Shown: positions 1 through 12,443, counted from the stretch's first letter. The stretch is 64,000 nucleotides of DNA from Clostridiales bacterium (GCA_029256575.1 JAQSXR010000015.1:19614-83613), one strand, 5' to 3'. Numbers and translations: made by a program. The notes: generated by a model not told the origin, from the sequence alone.

Positions 1-1403
1 TATCCTCTATTATTAAATAATCTAGAAAGCTCTCTTGCCTCTTCTTTTCTACTGCAAAATACTAATCCCCTTACTCTATTTCCACTGTACCCATAAAAAT
101 TAATTTTTTCAATTATATAGTCAACACGAATATCAGATACAAGTTTTGAGAATTCTGTTGTATCATCAATAATTACCCCATTTACTGTAAGCTCTGTAAT
201 TCCAAAATAGTGAAATGGGCACAATAAATCATTTTCCATTGCCTGTTGCAATCGAATCTCATAAGCAATGTTATGATCAAATAGTTTATAAATGTTAATC
301 CCATCAGTTCTCTCAGGTGTTGCTGTCATACCAAGTAAAAACTTAGGTTTAAAATAATCCAATATTTTTATGTAGCTACTCGCACCGGCCTTGTGTGTTT
401 CATCTATTATTATGTAATCAAAATAATCTGGAGAAAATTCACTGTATACGCTCTCTTTTGACATCATTTGAACAGTAGAAAATAAGTAGTCTGTATCTAT
501 TTCTTTCATACTTCCTGATAACAAGCCCATTGAAATGTTTTCACCCAGAACATCTTTAAAACTTGCTATTGCCTGTTTCAGTATCTGTTCACGGTGAACC
601 AAGAACAAAAGTTTCTTTGGCTTAACATTACGAACATCAAAAGCAGATAAATAAGTCTTACCTGTACCGGTTGCACTAATTATCAAAGCTTTATTCTTAC
701 TTTCACCTCTTAATTTATCCAAAGCCCTTGTAGCAGATATTTGCATTTTGTTTGGCTTTAGTATATATGACTTCATACTAATTAATTTCTGCTTGTCCCT
801 TACTTTTTTGCTCTCCATATACAGCTGTTCATACTTTATTAGCCATTCTTCATTGAGTTCATCCGCTCGATTCCACATTGACTCAAATTCATTCAGAGTT
901 TCTTTAATCAATTCACCCTTTTCCAAAGAGGTAACCTTTAGACTCCACTCTTTATTGGACTTCAACGCTTGTTGTGTCATATTTGAACTGCCTACTACAA
1001 AGGTATACTTTTCTTCATTCTTGAACATATATCCTTTTGTATGAAAATTCTCCTTTGTAAATACACGCACCTCTAAATTAGCGAAACCTAGTAACTCTCG
1101 TAATGCACGTGGTTCACTAAATAGTTGATAATCAGTTGTTAATATTTTTCCATGTATGCCTTTTTCACGTAATTCTTTTAAAGTTTCTTTTAATACAATC
1201 AATCCGCCTCTTGTAATAAAAGCAACCGAAAACCAAAATGTCTTACAGTCTTGTAATTCATTTTGGATATTTGCAAGGACAGTATTGCCTTTATGGTAAT
1301 CATTGTAAAGTAATTTTGGGCGTAGTTCTTCAGCTGATTCATAACTACTATCGACTAAACTTGTTCTTACTGACTCAAGTATCTTTTTTGTTAAATTATT
1401 CAT
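1..1403 (-). CDS. PLD nuclease + SF2 (DEAD/DEAH) helicase, SauUSI-like putative Type IV restriction enzyme; 3' end runs off the window
   Basis: Not in ORF track. Manual translation from ATG at 1403: MNNLTKKILES...FWFSVAFIT...FHTKGY...VVGSSNMT (PLD HxK...GSxN), ATGTGKT (Walker A), VHREQIL, IIDETH (Walker B), GMTATPERTDG. Frame is open to base 1. Confidence 0.85.
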   Translation of the reverse strand, partial: MNNLTKKILESVRTSLVDSSYESAEELRPKLLYNDYHKGNTVLANIQNELQDCKTFWFSVAFITRGGLIVLKETLKELREKGIHGKILTTDYQLFSEPRALRELLGFANLEVRVFTKENFHTKGYMFKNEEKYTFVVGSSNMTQQALKSNKEWSLKVTSLEKGELIKETLNEFESMWNRADELNEEWLIKYEQLYMESKKVRDKQKLISMKSYILKPNKMQISATRALDKLRGESKNKALIISATGTGKTYLSAFDVRNVKPKKLLFLVHREQILKQAIASFKDVLGENISMGLLSGSMKEIDTDYLFSTVQMMSKESVYSEFSPDYFDYIIIDETHKAGASSYIKILDYFKPKFLLGMTATPERTDGINIYKLFDHNIAYEIRLQQAMENDLLCPFHYFGITELTVNGVIIDDTTEFSKLVSDIRVDYIIEKINFYGYSGNRVRGLVFCSRKEEARELSRLFNNRG

Positions 1404-1835
1404 TTTATCCCCTTTCATCGAATCATTTCTTTAGTAATTTATATAATTATTTACTTCATTAATCATCCCTATAATCATAAGCATTTGAATTCCCTTTGTT
1501 CAATAAAACTCTCTCCCGAATCTAATATTTAACTTACTTAATTTACTTAACCTCTTGTTTTGCATCAACACAACATCATTCTAGGATTTAGTGATTAAAT
1601 ATAAATCTAAAACCCCCGAATAAGCCACTGATCAATCTGTAATATTTCATTACAAATTCCCAATAACCTACCGAGGGTAATTTTACAAGAATATTTATTT
1701 AATATAAAATTATAGTTTTTACTTAGAAGTCATAATACACAAGATGCCAATACTCTCCCCAATTTGTTACCTATTAATCTCTCTAAGGAAATTATATAAC
1801 AAATATATCCATGCTACAAGCATAATATAATAAAA

Positions 1836-1972
1836 CAGGACTATTTTCTACATTATTCTTATTCAAGCATTGTGCAGATTATCCAAATAATCGTGCTCTT
1901 TTTAACTATGATTTTTCATCACTTTATAATTCAATACTCGCAAAAGATATGCAAAAAAGAACCTCATACTTA
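1836..1972 (+). repeat. Left part of a decayed duplicate of the promoter and first codons of the YbhB/YbcL lipoprotein gene (matches ~8979-9141)
   Basis: Near-identical sequence: cattgtgcagattatccaa...tttaactatgatttttcatcactttataat...caatactcgcaaaaga...atgcaaaaaagaacctcatactta. The RBS segment of the intact copy is missing here. Confidence 0.9.
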
Positions 1973-2024
1973 GGGCTGTGTTCATAGGGATACTTTCTGA
2001 ACCTACCTAATGAATGGTGGCATT

Positions 2025-2057
2025 AAGCGGACAGTTAATGCTGTCCGCTTTTGTTTT
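2025..2057. terminator. Intrinsic terminator-like hairpin downstream of the recombinase remnant
   Basis: aagcggacag-ttaatg-ctgtccgctt followed by ttgtttt. Confidence 0.7.
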
Positions 2058-2123
2058 GCCTAAATTACAAGCCTTAGCTCTCCGCTACCATCGGCAACGA
2101 ATTCATAATCAGGTTCTGAAATA

Positions 2124-3150
2124 TCATTCCTTAGTGACATCATCAAGAATTTCGATGTCGTGATAGTAAATCCAGACGCATTGTTCAGCTGTCCTTGAAT
2201 ATCTTTCAGCCTTTTCACCCACAACAATCCTGTCTATAAAAAGGTGTAATAGTTCTGACGTCACTTCTGTGATATCTGTATACCGTTTCGCTTTTTCAAT
2301 AAACAGTTCTACATTCGTGAGGGAGTTTTTCATCTTTTCCATTTTTTCTTCTGCTTTTGGTATGTTTATTCTCAGAATTTTTTGTTCATCCGTATACTCT
2401 GAAGACAACATCCGAAGGTGTTCATCTGGAATTCTTCCAAGGACATTATCCTCGTAAAGTCTTTTGAATAAGATTGTAAGCTCTGAGTCTCTGCGTTTCA
2501 TATTATCCAATTCACGCTGAAGTCTTGTGAGCTCTTTTCTTGTTTCAAATGAATTTCGTTGATTGATATGTTCTGCAAATAATTTTTCTTGCTGTCTAGC
2601 AAAATGCGTCACACGTTTTAAATCATCAAGAATGATCGCTGTTAGCTGACTTTCCCTTGTATAATGGGAGTACATTCTTCTTTGCCACGCTTTTTATAGG
2701 TGGAGCACATGAAGTTGTTTTAGTGTATTCCATCGTATGAGCTCGATGTTGCACTAAAGTACCACCGCAATCTTCACAAAATACCAGTCCAGAGAACATA
2801 TTTGGCGTATCCATTTTCTTTGGTGGACGCTTTTTATGCTTTCGAATGCTTTGAACAATATCCCACAGTTCCTGAGTAATTAAAGGTTCATGGGTATTTT
2901 TAAAGACTAGCCATTCGGATTCAGGTCTTACAATCTGCCTTTTGATTTTGTAAGAAACAGTCGTGTGCTTCATATTTACGGCATGCACAATATAGGTGAT
3001 ATCTTCTAAAATATTTGAGATGCTATTACCATTCCAATTATAAGGTCTTGTAGTATCAAGATTTGTAAGGGCAACACCTGTTTGCTTATAATAGTAATTG
3101 GACGGTGTGATGATCTGATCTTCTTTTAATTTCCTTGCAATTTGTTTTGG
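2124..3150 (-). pseudogene. Large serine recombinase (TnpX/TndX-like: recombinase, zinc-ribbon and DUF4368 parts); N-terminal catalytic domain missing, two frameshifts
   Basis: Frame from 3150 reads PKQIARKLKEDQIITPSNYY...WNGNSISNILED...NTHEPLITQELWDIVQ...FSGLVFCEDCG. A short third-frame segment NNFMCSTYKKRGKEECT joins it to the LYEDNVLGRI...LFIDRIVVGE C-terminus. An in-frame stop lies at 3160-3162, with no catalytic domain upstream. Confidence 0.88.
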
Positions 3151-3257
3151 AATACGGTACTACACACAATACCGTAAGCGTTGCCACAAAGCTACTGAAA
3201 TCAAGCCTTTTTCAAAGTTCTTCAAGGGTATTATCAATTCCAAATTAGAAAAAAGTA

Positions 3258-3572
3258 CCTCTACTTATTTCCACGATGAAACGTGTGGTTGGACGAGAAA
3301 TAATTTTTTCCCTCACTACTAAAAGGAAAAATTCGGCTACCCTACAAAATTTTATTCTCATATACTTTCACGACGGTAGTTGTACGGAATGAATTTTGCT
3401 CTTACTTACTTCCACGATGAAATGGGTAGTCTACAAAAAAATCTTAATGATATTACACCGTAAAAAATAATATTGAGAACAAGAAAATTTATGCCCTCAC
3501 TTATTTCAACGATGGGAAGTCCTATTGTGCGGAAAATTTGCAACAAAAAAGATGCCCTCATAAACTTTCACG
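3258..3572 (+). repeat. Array of five clear plus one partial degenerate ~20-bp direct repeats, consensus CYCTCAYWWAYTTYMACGATG
   Basis: Copies at 3258 (cctctacttatttccacgatgaaa), 3310 (partial ccctcact), 3356 (tctcatatactttcacgacgg), 3399 (ctcttacttacttccacgatgaaa), 3491 (atgccctcacttatttcaacgatg) and 3552 (atgccctcataaactttcacg). Confidence 0.75.
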
Positions 3573-3620
3573 TTTAGAAGATCAACTACACACCTAAAAC
3601 TATTCAAAGACAATTAAATC

Positions 3621-3653
3621 TGATATAATTATTTTGTGCTATTAAAAGGAGGT
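3621..3653 (+). promoter_or_regulatory. Extended -10 promoter element and RBS for the RM operon
   Basis: TGATATAAT at 3621-3629; AAGGAGG at ~3647-3653 before ATG 3662. Confidence 0.55.
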
Positions 3654-3661
3654 TTTTTCTT

Positions 3662-3862
3662 ATGAGCGAAAAGAACGATATAAATGAACCTTGGGTAGGA
3701 ACAAAAGAGATAGCCGAACATTTAGGGGTTACAAAGAATACTGTTCACAAATGGATAAAAGCTGGATCTATACCATGCAGCAGAGTCGGAAAGTTGTGGA
3801 AGTTTAAGAAATCAGAAATTGACGCTTGGGTAAAATCTGGCGGAGCTGTGGAGGAAAAATAA
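3662..3862 (+). CDS. HTH_17 / excisionase-like DNA-binding protein, probable regulator of the RM operon
   Basis: WVGTKEIAEHLGVTKNTVHKWI...IPCSRVGKLWKFKKSEIDAWV pattern; strong RBS; 1 nt before the next gene. Confidence 0.88.
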   Translation: MSEKNDINEPWVGTKEIAEHLGVTKNTVHKWIKAGSIPCSRVGKLWKFKKSEIDAWVKSGGAVEEK

Positions 3863-3863
3863 T

Positions 3864-5681
3864 ATGGAAATGACTTATTTACAAAGAGCAATCAAAGATG
3901 GGTATGCTTTTATCTCAGGTGAAGATAAGACTGCAAAAATCACCTATGTTTCCTCTGACAATTTTAGTGCAAAATGGGGAAATCCAGAAGAAAACGTGCG
4001 TTCAGAATTTTGGGCAGAGCTTATTTATAAATATGATTATCCAGCTACACGAATAAGGCTTGAGGTAGTTATTCCCGATAGATTACCCACAGATAGAGCC
4101 GACATCGTTATATTCCGTGATGAAGAATGCAAGCGTCCTTATGCCATTGTTGAGTGTAAAAAAGACGGTATAACTGATGCAGAGTTTAACCAAGCAATTG
4201 AGCAAGGTGTAGGAAATGCTACATGGATTAAGTCACGTGCCGACTATGTAGTAACTATAGCAGGTGCAACACGCAGAGTATTGGATGTAACCGATACATA
4301 TGGAATATATGAGCGTGAAACCAATATTGTGGCTGACCTACCAAAAGCCTATGGCAAACCACAAGAATACCGTTTTTATAAAGGTGATAAGGATAATGAT
4401 ATTAAAATTATCTCCAGAGATGACTTAATAACAACGATTAAAAAATGCCATCAAACCCTTTGGGGTGGCGGAAGACTTTCACCACCTACTGCCTTTGGTG
4501 AACTATGCAAACTGATATTTGTTAAGATTAGCGATGAGCAAAAACCACGAAGAAATGGTGAGCCTTATGAGTTCCAAATAAAAACCCATGAGCCATCAAG
4601 CAAACTGGCAGAACGCATCAACAAGCTTTATGATGAGCAAAAGGTAAAAGATCCAGAAATTTTTACTGAAAGCATTAAGGTAGATGACAGAGTTTTAAGA
4701 ACAGTAGTTTCTCACTTGGAGAGTATAAACCTAAATAAAACAGATCTTGATGTTAAAGGTGTTGCCTTTGAGAAGTTTATGGATAGCTTTTTCAAGGGCG
4801 ATTTTGGTCAGTACTTTACACCACGACCAATTATTGAATTTGCAGTTAAAATGATGAAACCTAAACATGATGATTATGTGCTCGATACTTCTTGCGGTAG
4901 TGGCGGTTTCTTACTTCATGCTCTTGATTATATTAGACACGAAGCAAATGATTATCACATTAAAGGAACTCCGGAACACTATAAACACTGGCATGATTTT
5001 GCGGAAAAATATCTATTTGGAATTGAAATAAATGACGAAATTGCACGTGTTGCTAAAATGAATATGATTGTCCATGATGATGGGCACACCAATGTTATCA
5101 GCCATGATGCACTAGAAAGCATTGATAAAATGTACGAACACAATAGAGGTTTTAAGAAAGAGCATTTTGATTTAATTCTGACAAATCCACCATTTGGTTC
5201 ACAGATAAATCTTGCTGAGAAGCCTTATTTATCCACGTATCAATTGGGTAATAATTATGATGCAAAAGGCAAGGCAAAAGCACGTAAAAACCAAAAAACA
5301 GAAATTCTTTTCTTGGAGCGTATTTGGGAGTTTTTGAAATATGGAACAGGCAAAGCTGCTGTGGTTCTCCCTGATGGAATTTTAACCAATAGCTCTCTAC
5401 AATATGTGCGTGGCTATATCATGGAGAAATTTCAATTATTGGCTGTTGTCAGCTTTCCGCAAACTGCTTTTGCACACTTTGGTGCAGGTGTTAAGTCCTC
5501 TATCATCTTCTTGCGAAAGCGTGGCAAAGATGAATTAATGAGTAATGACGAAGTTATTTTTATGGCAGCACCAGAACTCATTGGGTATGACGCAACAGGA
5601 AGAGAAACAGAAAACCAATTTGATGAGGTTGTGAAACAATACGAAGCTTTTTTAGAAGATGCTACCCCTTTTTTTGTCTAA
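3864..5681 (+). CDS. Fused restriction endonuclease (HSDR_N-type PD-(D/E)xK) and N6-adenine DNA methyltransferase, Type IIB/IIG-like RM subunit
   Basis: N-terminal PEENVR...RADIVIF...IVECKK nuclease motif; GQYFTPRP, LDTSCGSGGFL (motif I), GIEIN and TNPPF (motif IV); no helicase domain. Confidence 0.92.
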   Translation: MEMTYLQRAIKDGYAFISGEDKTAKITYVSSDNFSAKWGNPEENVRSEFWAELIYKYDYPATRIRLEVVIPDRLPTDRADIVIFRDEECKRPYAIVECKKDGITDAEFNQAIEQGVGNATWIKSRADYVVTIAGATRRVLDVTDTYGIYERETNIVADLPKAYGKPQEYRFYKGDKDNDIKIISRDDLITTIKKCHQTLWGGGRLSPPTAFGELCKLIFVKISDEQKPRRNGEPYEFQIKTHEPSSKLAERINKLYDEQKVKDPEIFTESIKVDDRVLRTVVSHLESINLNKTDLDVKGVAFEKFMDSFFKGDFGQYFTPRPIIEFAVKMMKPKHDDYVLDTSCGSGGFLLHALDYIRHEANDYHIKGTPEHYKHWHDFAEKYLFGIEINDEIARVAKMNMIVHDDGHTNVISHDALESIDKMYEHNRGFKKEHFDLILTNPPFGSQINLAEKPYLSTYQLGNNYDAKGKAKARKNQKTEILFLERIWEFLKYGTGKAAVVLPDGILTNSSLQYVRGYIMEKFQLLAVVSFPQTAFAHFGAGVKSSIIFLRKRGKDELMSNDEVIFMAAPELIGYDATGRETENQFDEVVKQYEAFLEDATPFFV

Positions 5682-5726
5682 CCCCCAACTCGCAGGAGCT
5701 TCAAATTTTTACGGTGAAATTGGGGG
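5666..5726 (+). promoter_or_regulatory. Candidate programmed -1 ribosomal frameshift signal joining the RM and S frames
   Basis: Slippery C_CCT_TTT and T_TTT_TTT in the RM frame (5666-5675). The -1 frame is open from 5627 into the S ORF. Stem CCCCCAA (5682-5688)/TTGGGGG (5720-5726) starts 6 nt downstream. Confidence 0.6.
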
Positions 5727-7060
5727 AAATACAAAGCAGACTTGATGTTAATTACAATTTACCAGAATATCAATTCTTAGAGAGAGAATTGCGCAGTAAA
5801 TTTAATAATATCAAAACTATTAGTGATTATTCTGATGTTGTTTGTGGACCATTTGGAAGTTCTATTACTGATAAGGACTATTGTGATGAAGGTGTCCCGT
5901 TATTAAGAATAACAAATATTACTCGTGAAGGTAAACTTGACTTCGTAGACCTAAAATACATAAGTGAAGAATTATCAAATAAACTATCAAGCACACAGGT
6001 TTTTAACGGGGATATCGTTATTTCTCAAAGGGGAACATTAGGGCAATGTGCGATTGTAGACGATGCATTCAATGTTTACAATATTTCTGCAAACTTAATC
6101 GCAGTGAAAAATATCAAAAATATGTCTGCAAAATATATTAGAAATTATGTGCTTTCATCAATTGGCATTAAATTTTTAGAACGAGCCCAAAGCGGACAGG
6201 TTCAAGGCAAAATAACAACTACGGATATTTCATCAATGCCTATTCCAAAGATTGAAAATGAAGAATTATTAAATTCGATAATGGAAAAAGGGTTTTTGAC
6301 TTATCAAAATAAAATCACACAAGCTGAAGAATTACTAAAAGGTATGGACTTGTATGTACTGTCTACATTAGGTCTTGAAATTCCTGATTATACGCAAAGG
6401 CTTTGTAATGCAGTAAAGCTCAGGACGGTAAAAACTGACAACACATTAAACGCAGATTTCTATCATCCAGAACGAATTGGAATAATCAGAATGATGGAAC
6501 AAAACACGCATATAAAGACAAAAAGGTTGGTTGACACAGTAGATTTCTGCCGTGATATCGTATCCGCTAATAATGAAAATCTTCGGTATATAGGTCTTGC
6601 AAGCGTTCAAAGTCATACGGGAGAATTATTAAATATAGAGGAAGAAGCAAGTGGCCAAGCATTTGCATTTTTAAAAAATGACGTATTGTATGGCAGATTG
6701 AGACCATATCTCAATAAAGTATTTGTAGCGGAAGAGAATGGTGTTTGTTCAACGGAGTTTCATGTAATGAGAATGAAAACTGAAGATATACTACCCAATT
6801 ATTTATCAGTAATCATGCGAACTCTTATTATTCTTGGACAAACACGACACATGATGACGGGTAACACACATCCTCGTATAGCAAACGCAGAAGTAGAAAA
6901 TTTGCATATTCCTATTCCAAGCAAAGAGATACAACAACAGATAGCGGATGAAGCTATTCGCCGACGAACTATTGCAAGGAAGTTAAAGGAAGAGGCTGAA
7001 ATTGACTGGAAAACGGCAAAAGAACAGTTTGAGAAAGAGTTATTTGGGGGTGATAAATAA
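5714..7060 (+). CDS. HsdS-like specificity subunit with two target recognition domains; true start uncertain, frame open from 5627
   Basis: TRD1 GPFGSSI...GVPLLRITNI...GDIVISQRGTLG; TRD2 NDVLYGRLRPYLNKV...STEF; conserved IPIPSKEIQQQIA spacer helix. Confidence 0.9.
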   Translation: MKLGEIQSRLDVNYNLPEYQFLERELRSKFNNIKTISDYSDVVCGPFGSSITDKDYCDEGVPLLRITNITREGKLDFVDLKYISEELSNKLSSTQVFNGDIVISQRGTLGQCAIVDDAFNVYNISANLIAVKNIKNMSAKYIRNYVLSSIGIKFLERAQSGQVQGKITTTDISSMPIPKIENEELLNSIMEKGFLTYQNKITQAEELLKGMDLYVLSTLGLEIPDYTQRLCNAVKLRTVKTDNTLNADFYHPERIGIIRMMEQNTHIKTKRLVDTVDFCRDIVSANNENLRYIGLASVQSHTGELLNIEEEASGQAFAFLKNDVLYGRLRPYLNKVFVAEENGVCSTEFHVMRMKTEDILPNYLSVIMRTLIILGQTRHMMTGNTHPRIANAEVENLHIPIPSKEIQQQIADEAIRRRTIARKLKEEAEIDWKTAKEQFEKELFGGDK

Positions 7061-8511
7061 TGAAACTGAGTGGAATTGTTGATTATACAATGGGTAATTT
7101 TCTATGTTTAAGGGGTTATGCATCATTTAAAGACTTGTCTCGCATTTCCCAGCCAAACCCTGATTATCAACGCCCCTTAATAGATAATCATAAAGGGGAC
7201 ATGGCACGTTTTTTAAATCAAGGAGAATATCTTTTTTTCCCAGAAGTGATTTTATCATTATCCTTAGCAACAAATGGTAATTACGATGAAATTAGAAATA
7301 TACAAACCATCATTTCAGCAGGTGATACTTGGAATGGGTCTTTAGGTGATTTTAAGATTGATATGTCTAAAAACGAAACTAAGTCGCATAGTGGTGGAGT
7401 TAATAGAGTACGGCTTGGTCACATTACGTTTGACGAATCTAAAATAAAGCTTAATAGAATTGATGGAAATCACCGAATGAGTGCTGCTGATGAAACAATC
7501 AGTGACTTCAAAACCCCCTTTTGTATTTTGCTATTTGCAAACGAACAGGAGAATGAAAAATTTTCTCGAGCAATATTTCACAACGTGAACGCAAAACAAA
7601 TTCCGTTAAAGTTAGAAGAAAACTTGAAAGTTATTTTAGATAACGATCTTGTTTATTCCGATACTTCACTGACTAGCTCATTTGGTTATAATTACTATTT
7701 GGCACGGAAAACATTAAAAAGTATAGATTTGGCATATTTCGCCAATTTCAACACCTACATAGGAACTTCGAAATACACTTTTTTTGTGGCATTATTTGAA
7801 TACCTCATTAGTAACAATAGCATTCCAAATACTGATGAATCAATTGAAATAATTAAAGGACAACTTGTAGATATAGAAACTGCTCTTGCTGAATCACAAG
7901 TTGTTGCAACAACTACCAATATTGCTATTATAGGTGCACTGGCTTATTACAAATTGACTAATCAGCTAAAATACCGTGGTTTTATGTCTTGGATTAAGAA
8001 AAATAACCTTGGAAATGTTCAAATGTTGCATATAGGTGATGTAATAAAACTCTATGATGAAATAGCTGCACATACTCCTAAAAGAGCTTTCTTGGCAAGG
8101 TGGTACCCATCAGAAACAGATTCAGCATATACTAAGTCAAAGCATCGAATAGATGCGATGAAACAGGTGGCTGATGAACTCAATCTTGATTTGACGGATC
8201 TTGGAACAAAAGATACAGGTGCATTTGATATCAGAGAAGTTATGTATCACGATATACGTGAATGTGATGTATTTATTGCAGACTTAACGGGGGCGCGCCA
8301 CAATGTAATGATTGAAGTTGGATATGCTTTAAAGCATATCGGAACTGGACGAATGGTATTCTATTTTCAAGAAACTGAAAATTGCAAAGCTGTTCCATTT
8401 GATATCAGTCATCTAGCGTACGACCTTATTGTTGATTCAGCAGAGATAAAGAGTAAAACAAAAACAAGAATTCAAAAGGTCATTTTGCAAGCAATGAATG
8501 GAGAAATATAG
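7060..8511 (+). CDS. DGQHR (DndB/ParB-like) domain fused to a C-terminal nucleoside 2-deoxyribosyltransferase/TIR-like domain; putative defence effector
   Basis: YQRPL...FFPEVILSL...RIDGNHRM...IFHNVNAKQIPL (DGQHR family motifs). C-terminus has CDVFIADLTGARHNVMIEVGYAL...VPFDI (NDT-like). TAATG overlap with the S stop codon. Confidence 0.75.
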   Translation: MKLSGIVDYTMGNFLCLRGYASFKDLSRISQPNPDYQRPLIDNHKGDMARFLNQGEYLFFPEVILSLSLATNGNYDEIRNIQTIISAGDTWNGSLGDFKIDMSKNETKSHSGGVNRVRLGHITFDESKIKLNRIDGNHRMSAADETISDFKTPFCILLFANEQENEKFSRAIFHNVNAKQIPLKLEENLKVILDNDLVYSDTSLTSSFGYNYYLARKTLKSIDLAYFANFNTYIGTSKYTFFVALFEYLISNNSIPNTDESIEIIKGQLVDIETALAESQVVATTTNIAIIGALAYYKLTNQLKYRGFMSWIKKNNLGNVQMLHIGDVIKLYDEIAAHTPKRAFLARWYPSETDSAYTKSKHRIDAMKQVADELNLDLTDLGTKDTGAFDIREVMYHDIRECDVFIADLTGARHNVMIEVGYALKHIGTGRMVFYFQETENCKAVPFDISHLAYDLIVDSAEIKSKTKTRIQKVILQAMNGEI

Positions 8512-8623
8512 GCAATTTTAGGATTGACTTGAGTAAATCAATCTTGATATGAAAACTACAGAGTAATAAATATCTGTTATACTTTCAGATTACAGTATCA
8601 CATACTAATTCAGTTTTAAGTAA

Positions 8624-8665
8624 AAATGCACCTTAGGATAATCAATGTCCTAAGGTGCATTTCTT
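8624..8665 (+). terminator. Strong hairpin terminator closing the RM operon
   Basis: aaatgcaccttagga-taatcaatg-tcctaaggtgcattt, 15-bp perfect stem. Confidence 0.85.
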
Positions 8666-8716
8666 CGTATTCAGTTTACCTTTGACCTTCAGTTCACAAG
8701 TTGTCTTTATGACCAC

Positions 8717-8978
8717 TTTTTATTGTAACATTATCAATTACTGCTTGTTCCAATTCAACTATTTCGAAAGAAGAATCTCAAACATTCACAACTAGTTCTC
8801 CTGAAATCGATAAGGAGGACATTGTAACACTGAAGAAAGTACTACAGAAGAAGAACTTACGACCGAAGAAGACACATTCGCTTATGAAGATAATTTAATC
8901 GAATTTGATATCACCTCTTCATCACTTCGAGATGGCGGAAAATGGCTTTCGATCATAACAAAATCAAAGGGTGAAAAT
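8717..8978 (+). pseudogene. Right part of the decayed duplicate of the lipoprotein 5' region (matches ~9152-9417)
   Basis: tttttattgtaacattatcaattactgcttgttccaattc...gatcataacaaaatcaaagggtgaaaa is near-identical to the intact gene, with small indels. Confidence 0.9.
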
Positions 8979-9114
8979 CAGACTTATATCTACATTATTT
9001 TTATTCATGCATTGTGCAGATTATCCAACTAATCGTGCACATTTTAACTATGATTTTTCATCACTTTATAATACAATACTCGCAAAAGACAATATATTTA
9101 TAAAAGGAGAATTT

Positions 9115-9789
9115 ATGCAAAAAAAAAGAACCTCATACTTATCATTATTAGTTTTTATTGTTACATTATCAATTACTGCTTGTTCCAATTCAACAACTAT
9201 TTCGAAAGAAGAATCTCAAACAATCACTACTAGTTCTCCTGAAATAGATAAGGAGGACATTGTGACCACTGAAGAAAGTAATACAGAAGAAGAACTTAAG
9301 ACCGAAGAAGGCACATTCGCTTATGAAAATAATTTAATCGAATTTGATATCACCTCTACATCACTTCGAGATGACGGAAAATGGCTTTCGATCATAACAA
9401 AATCAAAGGGTGAAAACAAGTCACCTCAACTATCTTGGACGCCTGTTGAAAATGCGACCTGCTATGGCATTTATATGTTTGATACAAGTGCAGGAAACTG
9501 GCTACATTGGATTGCCAAAGATGTCACTGAAACAGAACTCGAGATGGGCGTCGAAATTGAAAACAGCAAATACGTTGGCCCATATCCACCAGGTGGAACC
9601 CATACTTACGAAATAACTATTTTTGCATTTAAAGCATCACCGGATTCCTACCCCGGAACATTTGACAGTTCTAATTCTAATCTTGATACGATTATTAGCA
9701 AATTAGACACGTCTAATGGAGTGTCAGGGAATATTATCGCAATAAGCGTATTGTCCGGAACTTACAAAAGTGGCGACATCGTTGAATAG
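9115..9789 (+). CDS. YbhB/YbcL (PEBP/Raf-kinase-inhibitor-like) family lipoprotein
   Basis: RBS AAAGGAGA then ATG 9115; lipobox SITAC; ENKSPQLSW...WLHW...YVGPYPPGGTHTYEITIFA motifs. Confidence 0.85.
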   Translation: MQKKRTSYLSLLVFIVTLSITACSNSTTISKEESQTITTSSPEIDKEDIVTTEESNTEEELKTEEGTFAYENNLIEFDITSTSLRDDGKWLSIITKSKGENKSPQLSWTPVENATCYGIYMFDTSAGNWLHWIAKDVTETELEMGVEIENSKYVGPYPPGGTHTYEITIFAFKASPDSYPGTFDSSNSNLDTIISKLDTSNGVSGNIIAISVLSGTYKSGDIVE

Positions 9790-10697
9790 TTACGGTAATC
9801 ACTTGGCGTTTTTCCAAAATGTAATTTTATAGCTCTAGAAAAATAACCGACATCGGAATACCCAACACGCAGAGCAACTTCTGTCAAAGGTATTTCGGTG
9901 TCCCTTAATATAGCGCCAGCTAATTGCATACGCATCCATACAAAATATTTCATTACAGTCGTATTCATTTCTCTTTGAAATTCGCTGTTTATCAAATTTC
10001 TATTGCATGCAAATTTCTTCTCCAACATATTCAACGTAATCTTTTTATTGATATTTTGATTTAAATATTGAATAATATCGTAAGTTAATTTATTTGTATT
10101 TTTTTCATTGATCACACAAATTGTTTCCATATTTCCCTCTGTCTTCGCTCCATCGATAAAGAAAAGCAACTCAATAAAATAGGATCTACTTCTACATGGC
10201 CAGTAGCCATCTTTTTGCTCTTCCAATTCCATTTTGACCTTTTCAACAAGATTATTCAATACAATTGATGACGAAGCCTCTAGCAAAATAAGAGTCCGCT
10301 TCATACAATTAATTCCATAAAAAGAACTTAATAATGACAAATCCTGAAAATTTGTAGTCCCGGCCATTTCATTATAATATTTCACATTGAAGATTTCATA
10401 GGACAAATGATCATTTAGCGCGATTGGTCTAAAAAATAACACCCTCATATGGAAAGCATTGAAGTCTTCAGATGAAATGGCATCCTCGTGATTGAGACAC
10501 AATAAAGCCGGAGCCATTACATATAGTAGGTTATTATTGCATTTTACCATGCCATTTCCATTCAAAATTAAAACTATTTTACACGTCTCTCGATCATTTA
10601 AGACACTAATTGCTTCTTTGCCTTCCAATACCTTGAGAAATACAATCCTATTCCAATCTTTGTCATGACTTTTCACAAATAATTCCATTGTCCTCAC
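9762..10697 (-). CDS. AraC family transcriptional regulator
   Basis: C-terminal double HTH, LTEVALRVGYSDVGYFSRAIKLHFGKTPSDYR. Confidence 0.92.
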   Translation of the reverse strand: MRTMELFVKSHDKDWNRIVFLKVLEGKEAISVLNDRETCKIVLILNGNGMVKCNNNLLYVMAPALLCLNHEDAISSEDFNAFHMRVLFFRPIALNDHLSYEIFNVKYYNEMAGTTNFQDLSLLSSFYGINCMKRTLILLEASSSIVLNNLVEKVKMELEEQKDGYWPCRSRSYFIELLFFIDGAKTEGNMETICVINEKNTNKLTYDIIQYLNQNINKKITLNMLEKKFACNRNLINSEFQREMNTTVMKYFVWMRMQLAGAILRDTEIPLTEVALRVGYSDVGYFSRAIKLHFGKTPSDYRNYSTMSPLL

Positions 10698-10844
10698 ATA
10701 ATCTAGATATCTGAGTTCGATACCAAGATTACTATCCTCCTCAACGTAATAATTTTACTTTATATTTGAAAAGTGGGTGCACTCTGCCCTATTGCAATGA
10801 CCTTACCCATCTATTAGCATATTTACACTGCTCCTATCCCAATT

Positions 10845-11618
10845 TCACTCAACCTCAATATCCACAAAATCTCCAATCGCATGCGGTACACCCAAATAAA
10901 TATGTAACTTCCCATCTTTATAATACGAATACCCTTCCGCCCAACTATTCGTCTCTATATCGATATCAAATCCACTTAATTCCTCTACCAATCTTTCTTT
11001 CGTATACATAGATAAATAATCATCCACAGCATCTTTGAAAATACCCTCAATCACATTTCCATCGATATCACGAATAACTAACCCAGTATTATCAATTATC
11101 TTTTGTGCAATTTCATCCACATTCTCAATGTCCGCTAATCTAACTATTTTCCCGTTCACTAAATCAACATTCAGGCTTCCTACAAATGCACTAGGATGTG
11201 CAGCTCCTACAACATTTTGGTAACCTCGCATGATGATTGAAATCATCTCATTTGTTTGTGTTACTACTTCGAAATCCATTTCATAAGTGTCATCTTCACT
11301 ATAATTTTCTATGTTTTTAGTTGCAAATTCTTCTAGAACTCGGTTAACCTGTTCTTCAAGTTCAACATTCTCTAACCCACTAATTCTAGGATAAACAACC
11401 CTAATTTGATCTTTACTATAAGTTTTATTTTCTATTTTATAGTCAACCTCATCCGGTGTTTTGGTTATCGTCTCTTCAGGTTCTTTTTCTATTGTTGTTG
11501 TTACTGTATTTTGTGGTTCTTTATCAATAATCTCTGGCTTACCTTTACAGCCAGTCATACCAATTACTAGTGCAACTGTGCAAACTAACATCACTAATTT
11601 ATGTTTCATACAAATCAT
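10845..11618 (-). CDS. DUF4163/DUF3298 (PdaC/RsiV-like) lipoprotein
   Basis: Lipobox MTGC; VVYPRISGL, GAAHP, NVDLVNGKIVRLADI, VPHAIGD. Confidence 0.75.
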   Translation of the reverse strand: MICMKHKLVMLVCTVALVIGMTGCKGKPEIIDKEPQNTVTTTIEKEPEETITKTPDEVDYKIENKTYSKDQIRVVYPRISGLENVELEEQVNRVLEEFATKNIENYSEDDTYEMDFEVVTQTNEMISIIMRGYQNVVGAAHPSAFVGSLNVDLVNGKIVRLADIENVDEIAQKIIDNTGLVIRDIDGNVIEGIFKDAVDDYLSMYTKERLVEELSGFDIDIETNSWAEGYSYYKDGKLHIYLGVPHAIGDFVDIEVE

Positions 11619-11880
11619 CTCCTCTATTTGAACATTGCTACCTACCCCTATTATATATTCTTAAAGGCAGTATGTCATTCTTATTTTAATTTGTGTTATA
11701 GATATGATAAATCATAATTTTATGCTTTAATTGTCATATTATCAACTTGTTTTAAACTAATTATGACACAGTCTTTTCATTACATCTACTATGGTTGTAT
11801 CATGTTAAGTGATTATAAAAAATAACCTTTGCCACCTTCAATAAGAAAGTAGATAAGGTTATTTCCCCCAGCATAATTCT

Positions 11881-12443
11881 TTAATTTGAGTTTTCAGTAT
11901 TGGTCCCCATATCATTACTTTTAAGAAAGCAAAAAACATACATACCGATAAAGAGCATAAAAATACAAATAAACTGTGAAGTTGATAAATTCCCAACAGT
12001 CCCTCTCTGGTCCTCTCTGAATATCTCAATTACAAATCTACCTATACTATACAGAATCATATATAACCCTGCAACTCATTTGGAGCATTTAAGGAATTAT
12101 GAAATATGATACCGAAGGCATGATTCGTTTCTCTGCCATAACAACAACCTGCTTCATAACACCCAATTCTTCCAAATCCTTGCGCAAGCGCAATTGCAGG
12201 TACTATTAAGTCTATATATAATAAGAAATCTAAATGCTTTATTTTGCAGTAAAAATATCCCGCTGCAAACCCACCAATAATTCCTCCATATACTACAAAC
12301 CCACTGCTTAATGTTTCAATTATGTAACTTGGATTGTCAATTATATTTGGGAATTCTGTTATCCAAAATAAAAGCTTCGCTCCAACGAATCCTCCTATTA
12401 GTCCATAAATAATAAACCCTAATTCAAATAAAACTGGATGCAT
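11881..12443 (-). pseudogene. lgt: Prolipoprotein diacylglyceryl transferase family, with internal deletions and a frameshift
   Basis: GAKLLF, GFVVYGGIIGG, AQGFGRIGC..AGCCYG. The C-terminus VAGLYMILYSIGRFVIEIFRED...STSQFI is in another frame. The usual YG-containing N-terminal helix and the PTQ(L/I)YE segment are absent. Confidence 0.85.

Follow-up and report, generated by a model that had tools for sequence, protein, structure and literature searches.

Restriction-modification (RM) enzymes are the commonest barrier that phages meet, and phages often disarm them with DNA mimics or by base modification. Worked examples of a second-layer effector wired to an RM enzyme are few: PrrC, Ronin, and EcoR22I. 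In Ronin, from E. coli ECOR55, an hsdM-hsdS pair without hsdR is tightly linked to RonA; HsdMS suppresses this toxin, Ocr, ArdA or Aop1 releases it, and the authors liken the arrangement to PrrC (bioRxiv 10.1101/2023.04.06.535777). ParB-like proteins of the COG1479/DGQHR kind have been noted at Pgl loci and within Type I RM loci, with a suggested role in cell death (Makarova et al. 2013, PMC3632139). Here we describe a locus that compares with these at positions 3662-8511 of a 64,000-nucleotide stretch from an uncultured environmental Clostridiales bacterium (GCA_029256575.1 JAQSXR010000015.1:19614-83613), the whole of which is called the window below. Four tightly packed genes on the + strand encode a helix-turn-helix (HTH) protein, a nuclease-methylase (M), a specificity subunit (S), and a protein of an unnamed family, G4, for which motifs and modelled structure predict a DGQHR-type ParB/Srx domain followed by a domain of NDT/TIR fold whose catalytic-type Glu is conserved. 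RM enzymes accompanied by a linked accessory effector are already known in kind; the pair of domains is unusual. Our preferred but tentative reading is that G4 is an accessory effector tied to M-S, which would hydrolyze NAD+ or nucleotides when triggered.

The likeness to Ronin, and to PrrC with EcoprrI, is that of a Type-I-like M plus S without hsdR, accompanied by a tightly linked extra gene, the presumed effector. The differences lie both in that gene and in M. The effectors RonA and PrrC are, respectively, a membrane protein of 61 aa and an anticodon nuclease, whereas G4 is a 483-aa soluble multidomain protein; and, unlike Ronin, the locus in the window has an M with a conserved nuclease domain, which may make it a real restriction enzyme. 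PrrC had been named as the precedent in a first-pass annotation made by a model from the DNA alone, and it is a valid one, but Ronin is the closer of the two, and the G4 system is a member of neither. A second comparison is with the Type II retron effectors (RcaT; Retron-Eco1/Sen2), in which an NDT-like domain is paired with a DNA-binding one and which are held inactive inside a nucleoprotein complex; in RcaT-Sen2 the Glu-to-Gln change E107Q is dead, and activation proceeds via a change of oligomeric state. With these and with the CAP12-type TIR effectors of CBASS, G4 would share the NDT/TIR fold, the catalytic Glu, and a DNA-binding part, but its surroundings include no reverse transcriptase, msDNA or cyclic-nucleotide synthase, its DNA-binding part is ParB-like, and none of the PADLOC retron effector models matches it at E <=0.1. 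As the first-pass annotation had supposed, the system has no name there: no model of PADLOC v2.0.0 covers G4 as a system component. Likewise, source annotations and Atlas clusters leave the family unnamed, save for some neighbors auto-labelled "putative DndB," and in the literature we found no description of a DGQHR/ParB-NDT protein in RM operons, although supplements or subscription journals may hold a mention.

The arrangement of the genes is compact. One nucleotide separates gene 1 from M and 32 nt separate M from S, and S overlaps G4 by 1 nt at the junction GATAAATAATGAAA (TAATG), where the TAA stop of S occupies 7058-7060 and the ATG of G4 occupies 7060-7062; G4 is thus translationally coupled to S. 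Because all four proteins have strong homologues, the genes are not chance open reading frames (ORFs). The operon described by the first-pass annotation is therefore borne out in its ORFs, its 1- and 32-nt gaps, its TAATG overlap, and its terminator-like hairpin. That it lies behind one promoter was also claimed: an extended -10-like TGATATAAT at 3621-3629 is a consensus match read by eye, and a promoter scan gave 24 sites against 26.6 in shuffled sequence. Since the scan shows no excess over the shuffles, a single promoter is a reasonable reading only. A Shine-Dalgarno sequence, AAAGGAGG, lies at 3645-3652, ahead of gene 1.

Three motifs define DGQHR domains, namely a QR pair, the DGQHR pentapeptide, and FxxxN (PMC4619093); the first 184 residues of G4 carry the first and the last of these and a variant of the pentapeptide. 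Every motif that had been quoted for the protein (P0004) is present in it: YQRPL at 36-40, FPEVIL at 60-65, IDGNHR at 134-139, FHNVN at 173-177, FIADLTGARHNVMIEVGYAL at 405-424, and PFDI at 446-449. An alignment of 45 diverse members has 19 invariant residues, among them R18, G19, Q37-R38, E62, R133, D135-G136, H138-R139, F173, and N177 at the N-terminal end, and QR, DGNHR and FxxxN are invariant both there and in 42 aligned relatives; the pentapeptide of the family is thus an invariant DGNHR, in which 4 of 5 residues match DGQHR. A beta-rich insert lies at about residues 87-128. The QR pair, DG(Q/N)HR, FxxxN, and the ParB/Srx fold are also the points of likeness to DndB, DpdB, GmrS/BrxU, and SspE. 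G4 differs from these DGQHR/DUF262 proteins in its DGNHR, in profile scores below the cut-offs (the DpdB model matches weakly, and PF14072, DGQHR, gives no match at E <=0.1 in a Pfam scan), and in its partner domain, which is of NDT fold where theirs are HNH, PD-(D/E)xK or HEPN.

Structural comparison points the same way. The AF2 model of the full protein has a pLDDT of 88.4 and that of residues 1-338 a pLDDT of 86.4, and a VIA search with the latter returned just 5 chains at Z >=5, all from the ParB/Srx superfamily: PadC (6.6), KorB (6.4), Pnob8 ParB-N (6.1), BrxU (5.8, at a root-mean-square deviation [rmsd] of 12.3 over 243 residues), and sulfiredoxin (5.2). The top N-terminal match in Foldseek is the CTP-binding ParB 6sdk_B (E 6.6e-4, TM 0.56), and a sequence search of the PDB with the N-terminal G4 profile gave nothing at E <=10. 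As the Z values are modest (below 8), the ParB/Srx assignment rests on fold and motifs jointly. For the helical middle (200-338) VIA gives matches of just Z 4-5, none of them convincing on its own, while the Foldseek alignments to fragments made up of the ParB N-terminal and DNA-binding regions cover about 300 columns; in the model, the middle domain is possibly the counterpart of the ParB DNA-binding domain.

At the C-terminal end the same 45 members keep F344, N415, V416, and E419 invariant and D408 in >=90%, in the pattern ADLT...NVxxExG. A search of the PDB with the family profile finds the T. brucei NDT 2a0k at E 1.3e-5, and the alignment puts E419 on the Glu of its ADLS...TAFEVG motif, which we take to be the position of the NDT nucleophile, with ADL(T/S) aligned too. 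The nucleophile of NDT enzymes is a Glu (Porter et al. 1995, cited through PMC3710099). With residues 338-483, VIA ranks the CMP N-glycosidase MilB highest (Z 15.5, rmsd 3.2, 138 aligned), followed by the NDT 6evs (13.4), the MAL TIR (13.2), and the SfSTING TIR (13.0), and with ThsA SLOG at 9.6; Foldseek also ranks BcmB/MilB first (BcmB TM 0.73). The PADLOC CBASS "Effector TIR" model matches G4 at 4.5e-9, and the CAP12-type TIR family PF10137 gives E 0.036 and 14.5 bits against a cut-off of 24.7, so that NDT and TIR folds are inseparable by the fold and family scores obtained. The architecture proposed at first, a DGQHR-type domain followed by an NDT/TIR-fold domain, is upheld by motifs, by fold matches (Z 15.5 to 13.0 at the C terminus), and by the conserved catalytic-type Glu. 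At E <=0.1 the Pfam scan of G4 finds no DUF262 or DUF1524/HNH match and no other DNA-cleaving domain.

Table. Coordinates of the operon, of the predicted domains of G4, and of flanking features in the window.
Feature	Position	Strand	Length or content
HTH gene 1	3662-3862	+	66 aa
M gene 2	3864-5681	+	605 aa
S gene 3	5714-7060	+	448 aa
G4 gene 4	7060-8511	+	483 aa
G4 aa 1-184	7060-7611	+	predicted ParB/Srx-fold, DGQHR-type domain
G4 aa 185-338	7612-8073	+	predicted all-helical middle, invariant W311
G4 aa 339-483	8074-8511	+	predicted NDT/TIR-fold (flavodoxin-like) domain
Intrinsic-terminator-like hairpin	8624-8662	+	17 pairs, then T-rich tail
Non-coding leader	3171-3661	+	490 bp; direct repeats, putative -10, Shine-Dalgarno
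Large serine recombinase remnant	2124-2988	-	two overlapping frames; Recombinase, Zn ribbon, DUF4368

The association of G4 with one type of RM enzyme is the second line of evidence. A pattern scan of one genome per species (185,579 species) yielded 278 stretches with a G4 relative, of which the best 80 were analyzed by ORF calling and by search with the window's own proteins. The order M-S-G4 is found in 56 of the 80 loci and M-G4-S in 5; in 2 more, M is present and S was not called. Nine loci read hsdM-hsdS-hsdR-G4, with an hsdR that has all the Pfam HsdR domains, and one has a different context. For the remaining 7 no judgement is possible because their contigs end too near G4, although S adjoins it in 4 of them. 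G4 thus sits within a Type-I-like M/S cluster in 72 of 73 informative loci, as the RM linkage expected by the first-pass annotation would have it, across 12 phylum labels and in many cases with 4-nt overlaps between neighboring genes. A quick tree inferred by maximum likelihood from 79 G4 rows (midpoint root; the split-G4 loci L036 and L083 excluded) groups the nine hsdR-type loci in a single clade and the five loci of order M-G4-S in a second one, both with an SH-aLRT of 100. The hsdR-type context and the M-G4-S order therefore each arose once on this tree, which points to long co-inheritance.

What had been called a four-gene system is, on this evidence, one of M, S, and G4. Of the HTH gene the survey holds no conserved trace: with the gene 1 protein (P0001) as query, 4 ORFs matched in the 80 loci and none adjoined M. 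By sequence, then, the HTH gene appears to be local to the window locus and is not conserved as a component of the system. In the closest relatives (L005, L007, L010, L013, L020, and others) a DUF5655 protein of about 298 aa stands in its place, directly upstream of M. Other guests of G4 operons are Ymh HEPN, LA2681 HEPN, YhcG, and RhuM proteins; each guest, DUF5655 included, is seen in 2-11 of the 80 loci, and the HEPN insertions of several loci lie between S and G4 (Ymh type) or after G4 (LA2681 type). Clostridia-type loci are 71-80% identical to the window copy in M and 56-64% in G4; across phyla the values are about 46% and 30%, M being the better conserved.

The family itself is large and has gone without a name. 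Among the candidates scored, 718 proteins are G4-like at E <=0.001, and in a library of 50%-identity representatives 518 clusters match at E <=0.001 and 143 at E <=1e-30. The top 120 are all 478-503 aa long, and the 2 that carry a name are both called "hypothetical protein." Within any one group G4 is rare: of 399 genomes drawn from the class to which the window belongs, the search hit a single one, the window's own. It was found in none of 50,697 phage records and in 1 of 72,556 plasmid records. The plasmid case (L178; NZ_CP109788.1, Leisingera thetidis, 4891-7131) is a 747-aa coding sequence annotated "N-6 DNA methylase," in which the front half of M, to about motif IV, runs in frame into G4 from residue 121 through the Glu motif, near an integrase fragment. 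We considered it as a Rosetta-stone fusion of M and G4 and rejected this, as a deletion within an M-S-G4 locus seems to have left it as a remnant. No fused form of G4 was found at E <=0.001 among 7401 longer proteins (847-2415 aa), which is weak evidence.

A reverse survey gives the association its proper limits. When the M protein was searched against metagenome contigs, at least 584 relatives were found, and the best 80 (33-78% identity) were kept. Seventeen of these loci have G4, 24 do not (with >=3.3 kb beyond M), and 39 are too short. Since M-S pairs, here of 39-67% identity, do without G4 in 24 of 41 informative loci, G4 is an accessory and not an obligate subunit. In the loci lacking it (among L098-L177), S is followed by genes on the opposite strand or, often within a few bases, by closely linked genes of a different nature. 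A Pfam scan of ten of these downstream genes, from 8 of the 24 loci and leaving out five further tabulated genes, gave 7 with no match, 1 KAP NTPase, 1 HTH plus M78 peptidase, and 1 possible membrane protein with sub-threshold matches. The M-S pair thus stands on its own, and the backbone of nuclease-methylase plus S seems to accept many alternative third genes, G4 being one of several. Exchange of effector domains within G4 is a different proposition and found no support: all 17 of the sufficiently complete G4-like proteins in the M-seeded loci share one three-part layout that extends to the Glu motif.

The M-S pair looks like a complete enzyme. M begins with a nuclease-type domain of the PD-(D/E)xK class (HSDR_N_2, aa 41-142, Pfam 9.9e-13; D80, E97, K99) and continues as a gamma-class N6-adenine DNA methylase (N6_Mtase, aa 296-596, Pfam 1.6e-41) with motif I DxxCGSGGF and motif IV NPPF; its best PADLOC model is MTase_I, labelled Type I methylase, at 454 bits. 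In 63 aligned M proteins linked to G4 the nuclease triad is retained (D80 98%, E97 98%, K99 100%), and motif I and NPPF are conserved as well, so M looks functional and its nuclease is apparently intact. S has two target-recognition domains (two Pfam Methylase_S stretches) and matches PADLOC Specificity_I at 2.1e-38. In contrast to classical Type I RM, ORF calls and Pfam find no HsdR translocase-nuclease, and no helicase-type or translocase gene, in the operon of the window. BcgI has nuclease and methylase in one polypeptide and a separate S subunit. The same layout is seen here, as the first-pass annotation had recognized in calling the operon Type IIB-like: one polypeptide with nuclease and gamma-class methylase, a separate S with two target-recognition domains, and no translocase. 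The likeness is one of layout. On the domains identified, M-S would be a self-contained RM enzyme derived from the Type I family; we know of no Type IIB enzyme with a G4-like partner.

Genes 1-3 have a further kinship, absent from the first-pass annotation, to MADS. Gene 1, an HTH_17/excisionase-family DNA-binding protein (Pfam HTH_17 1.8e-16), resembles MAD1 (PADLOC mad1 8.7e-13), M resembles the methylase MAD2, which has the same N-terminal domain, and S resembles MAD5. All three score well below the NCBIfam equivalog cut-offs, gene 1 with 61 bits against 80 for MADS1, M with 311.8 against 720 for MADS2 (over residues 42-580), and S with 96.6 against 400 for MADS5. Moreover, MADS is an operon of eight genes, mad1-mad8, with MAD3-MAD4 and MAD7-MAD8 modules (PMC13662399 for its content), against four here; its other genes are not seen in the four-gene operon (mad6-8 were not searched for in the genome), a search of the window's own genome, 95.3% complete, did not find mad4, and the mad3 model, an unspecific one that matches all 14 control genomes, has no match on contig C11 among those listed. 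G4 matches no mad model in PADLOC. Membership of MADS was therefore rejected, on the unmet equivalog cut-offs, the four genes, and the position of G4 outside the mad models.

How might G4 serve such an enzyme? Under the accessory-effector reading, its ParB/DGQHR-type N-terminal half would act as an NTP- and/or DNA-dependent switch that controls the C-terminal NDT-family N-glycosidase, and either the M-S enzyme or DNA would hold or control the protein via the ParB-like half. Once triggered, the glycosidase would split NAD+ or (deoxy)nucleotides at the bond between base and sugar, providing a second, possibly abortive, layer of defense when the RM layer has been bypassed or inhibited. The coupling of G4 to M-S, whether physical or functional, the trigger (anti-restriction proteins or modified DNA), the substrate, and the abortive outcome are what we infer. 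Such an effector fits the locus because a complete-looking RM enzyme, a conserved coupled partner, and a defense-island setting are found together. The first-pass annotation had proposed an abortive guard that senses RM inhibition and destroys NAD+ or nucleotides; the architecture and RM linkage on which it built hold, while the guard role would rest on the precedents of PrrC, Ronin, and RcaT.

Several points weigh against this accessory-effector reading. No trigger can be identified from the sequence. G4 scores below the cut-off for both of the families that would define its halves, with 31.5 bits against 58.85 for TIGR03187 (DGQHR; 1.5e-7) and 22.7 bits against 28.8 for PF05014 (Nuc_deoxyrib_tr; 1.1e-4). 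The nearest solved folds of its C-terminal domain are hydroxymethyl-pyrimidine nucleotide N-glycosidases (MilB/BcmB, DNPH1) and not NADases, so NAD+ is one candidate substrate among others. As the nuclease of M is apparently intact, the M-S pair need not be a "decoy" of the Ronin type. The retron precedent, put forward at first as that of a toxic effector in Eco1, is itself divided: NAD+ hydrolysis is reported for Retron-Eco1, but RcaT-Eco1 is described as non-toxic. Both surveys, moreover, are limited samples, the linkage counts coming from the best 80 of 278 loci and the M-seeded counts from the best 80 relatives of at least 584. A co-fold of the M core (aa 171-605) with full G4 scored 0.00 in both of two uncontrolled runs and carries no weight either way.

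The alternative that survives best, though we consider it unlikely, is that G4 works on its own as a Type IV-like module, an analogue of GmrSD, BrxU, and SspE, in which the ParB/DGQHR domain would sense hypermodified phage DNA or its precursors and an N-glycosidase would replace the HNH nuclease. Phages whose base modifications let them evade the RM enzyme would be covered by such a module. It would account for the QR, DG(Q/N)HR, and FxxxN motifs common to G4 and GmrS/DUF262, for the presence of BrxU among the top five fold matches (at the large rmsd given above), and for the best C-terminal matches, since by their entry titles MilB/BcmB and DNPH1 act on hydroxymethyl-CMP and 5hm-dUMP. BrxU, embedded in a BREX locus, is a precedent. 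A module acting alone would leave unexplained both the 4-nt overlaps that join G4 to S or M and a linkage to one M/S type that is near-exclusive, at 72 of 73 informative loci under 12 phylum labels; and, unlike GmrSD, BrxU, and SspE, G4 has a C-terminal NDT/TIR fold in place of DUF1524/HNH or another DNA-cleaving domain, and no DUF262 match.

Somewhat less likely again is that G4 is the restriction effector itself, or a required third subunit, which M-S would recruit at unmethylated sites in place of HsdR and which would slide as a ParB-like clamp and damage DNA by base excision. ParB-type domains are NTP-gated DNA clamps, and G4 occupies the usual place of hsdR in 63 of the 80 loci, those 63 having no hsdR. 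Action on DNA has a precedent in the proposal of Anantharaman et al. that NDT domains in Abi proteins cleave the glycosidic bond in DNA (PMC3710099). Three observations stand in the way: the M-S pairs that lack G4 in the M-seeded loci, the conserved triad of M, by which a nuclease is already present, and the nine-locus clade in which G4 accompanies a complete hsdR.

G4 could also be a regulator like DndB, binding DNA and nucleotides so as to tune RM expression or methylation, with the NDT-fold domain as a nucleotide sensor; we find this improbable. DndB is described as an ATP-modulated negative regulator of phosphorothioation (PMC10853773), some Atlas neighbor clusters carry the automatic name "putative DndB," and domains of NDT/TIR/SLOG fold also occur as sensors, ThsA SLOG being among the VIA matches. 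For a domain that only binds, however, the invariance of N415, V416, and E419 over 45 members, with D408 close behind, would be unexpected, and many M-S pairs do without G4. There is only a slim chance that G4 is a DNA-directed base-exchange or excision enzyme, which would work through a covalent Glu-deoxyribosyl intermediate at or near sites chosen by M-S. An equally slim one attaches to the idea that G4 is an unrelated passenger, a selfish or stand-alone toxin-like protein lodged in RM operons with no functional tie to M-S, for although these operons do host other guests, each of those is confined to 2-11 of the 80 loci, whereas G4 keeps one partner type and position across phyla, and its hsdR-type context and M-G4-S order each arose once on the quick tree.

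The DNA around the operon bears on its origin and company. The leader holds 28-nt direct repeats of the TACTTATTTCCACGATGAAA type at 3262, 3403, and 3498 and 16-nt repeats at 3357 and 3557. An Rfam search of positions 1-12000 gave two sub-threshold, chance-level matches and none for the leader repeats, which could be binding sites of the HTH protein or relics of an element. Ronin likewise requires an upstream non-coding region (bioRxiv 10.1101/2023.04.06.535777). Upstream lie the two minus-strand frames of the recombinase remnant, 2124-2675 (DUF4368) and 2626-2988 (Recombinase, Zn_ribbon_recom), and between 2988 and 3662 there is no ORF of >=60 aa able to hold the catalytic resolvase domain. 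The first-pass annotation had the recombinase of the same element destroyed; the remnant, with the frame of its catalytic domain missing, agrees with this, and a shared origin of remnant and operon is plausible. On the other side, a direct repeat of about 260 bp (8717-8977 and 9152-9416, 95-98% identity) may mark where, on the right, an inserted element carrying the operon ends. The first of the two copies duplicates, without a start codon, the 5′ part of a PEBP-family lipoprotein gene (8971-9789).

The operon sits in a defense island, with Type IV-like mREase, DruE-like, and LmuB-like genes alongside. The part to its left (G000:C11:4000-21100, L089) reaches into the window at 3-1418 on the minus strand. 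It includes a 975-aa PLD-helicase-DUF3427 protein (PADLOC Type IV mREase, 823 bits), encoded on the strand opposite to the operon and beyond the recombinase remnant; a 1566-aa DruE-like helicase with an MZB domain (PADLOC DruE, 608 bits), ahead of which lies a protein of 1071 aa that has no family; a NUDIX protein; and an ABC ATPase resembling LmuB, accompanied by two small proteins of which one is a weak match to CTD9 of ABC-3C systems.

If G4 is an accessory effector of the M-S enzyme, it would add to the few known cases of second-layer defense a three-gene example that is widespread, phylogenetically broad, and easy to clone, with a different effector chemistry (an N-glycosidase of NDT/TIR fold) and a ParB-type switch. 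The nuclease-methylase plus S backbone is hinted to be a platform, on which G4, the MADS modules, and several unannotated families would each have a place. Should the C-terminal domain act on DNA and not on NAD+ or nucleotides, the result would be a new restriction chemistry; and were base exchange or excision to prove true, G4, as a DpdB/DndB-like NTPase domain fused to a deoxyribosyl-transferase domain, would represent restriction or modification by transglycosylation, not by phosphodiester cleavage or methylation, and a one-protein analogue of the DpdA-DpdB pair. The accessory-effector role would also supply a function for a large family of "hypothetical proteins," 518 clusters at 50% identity.

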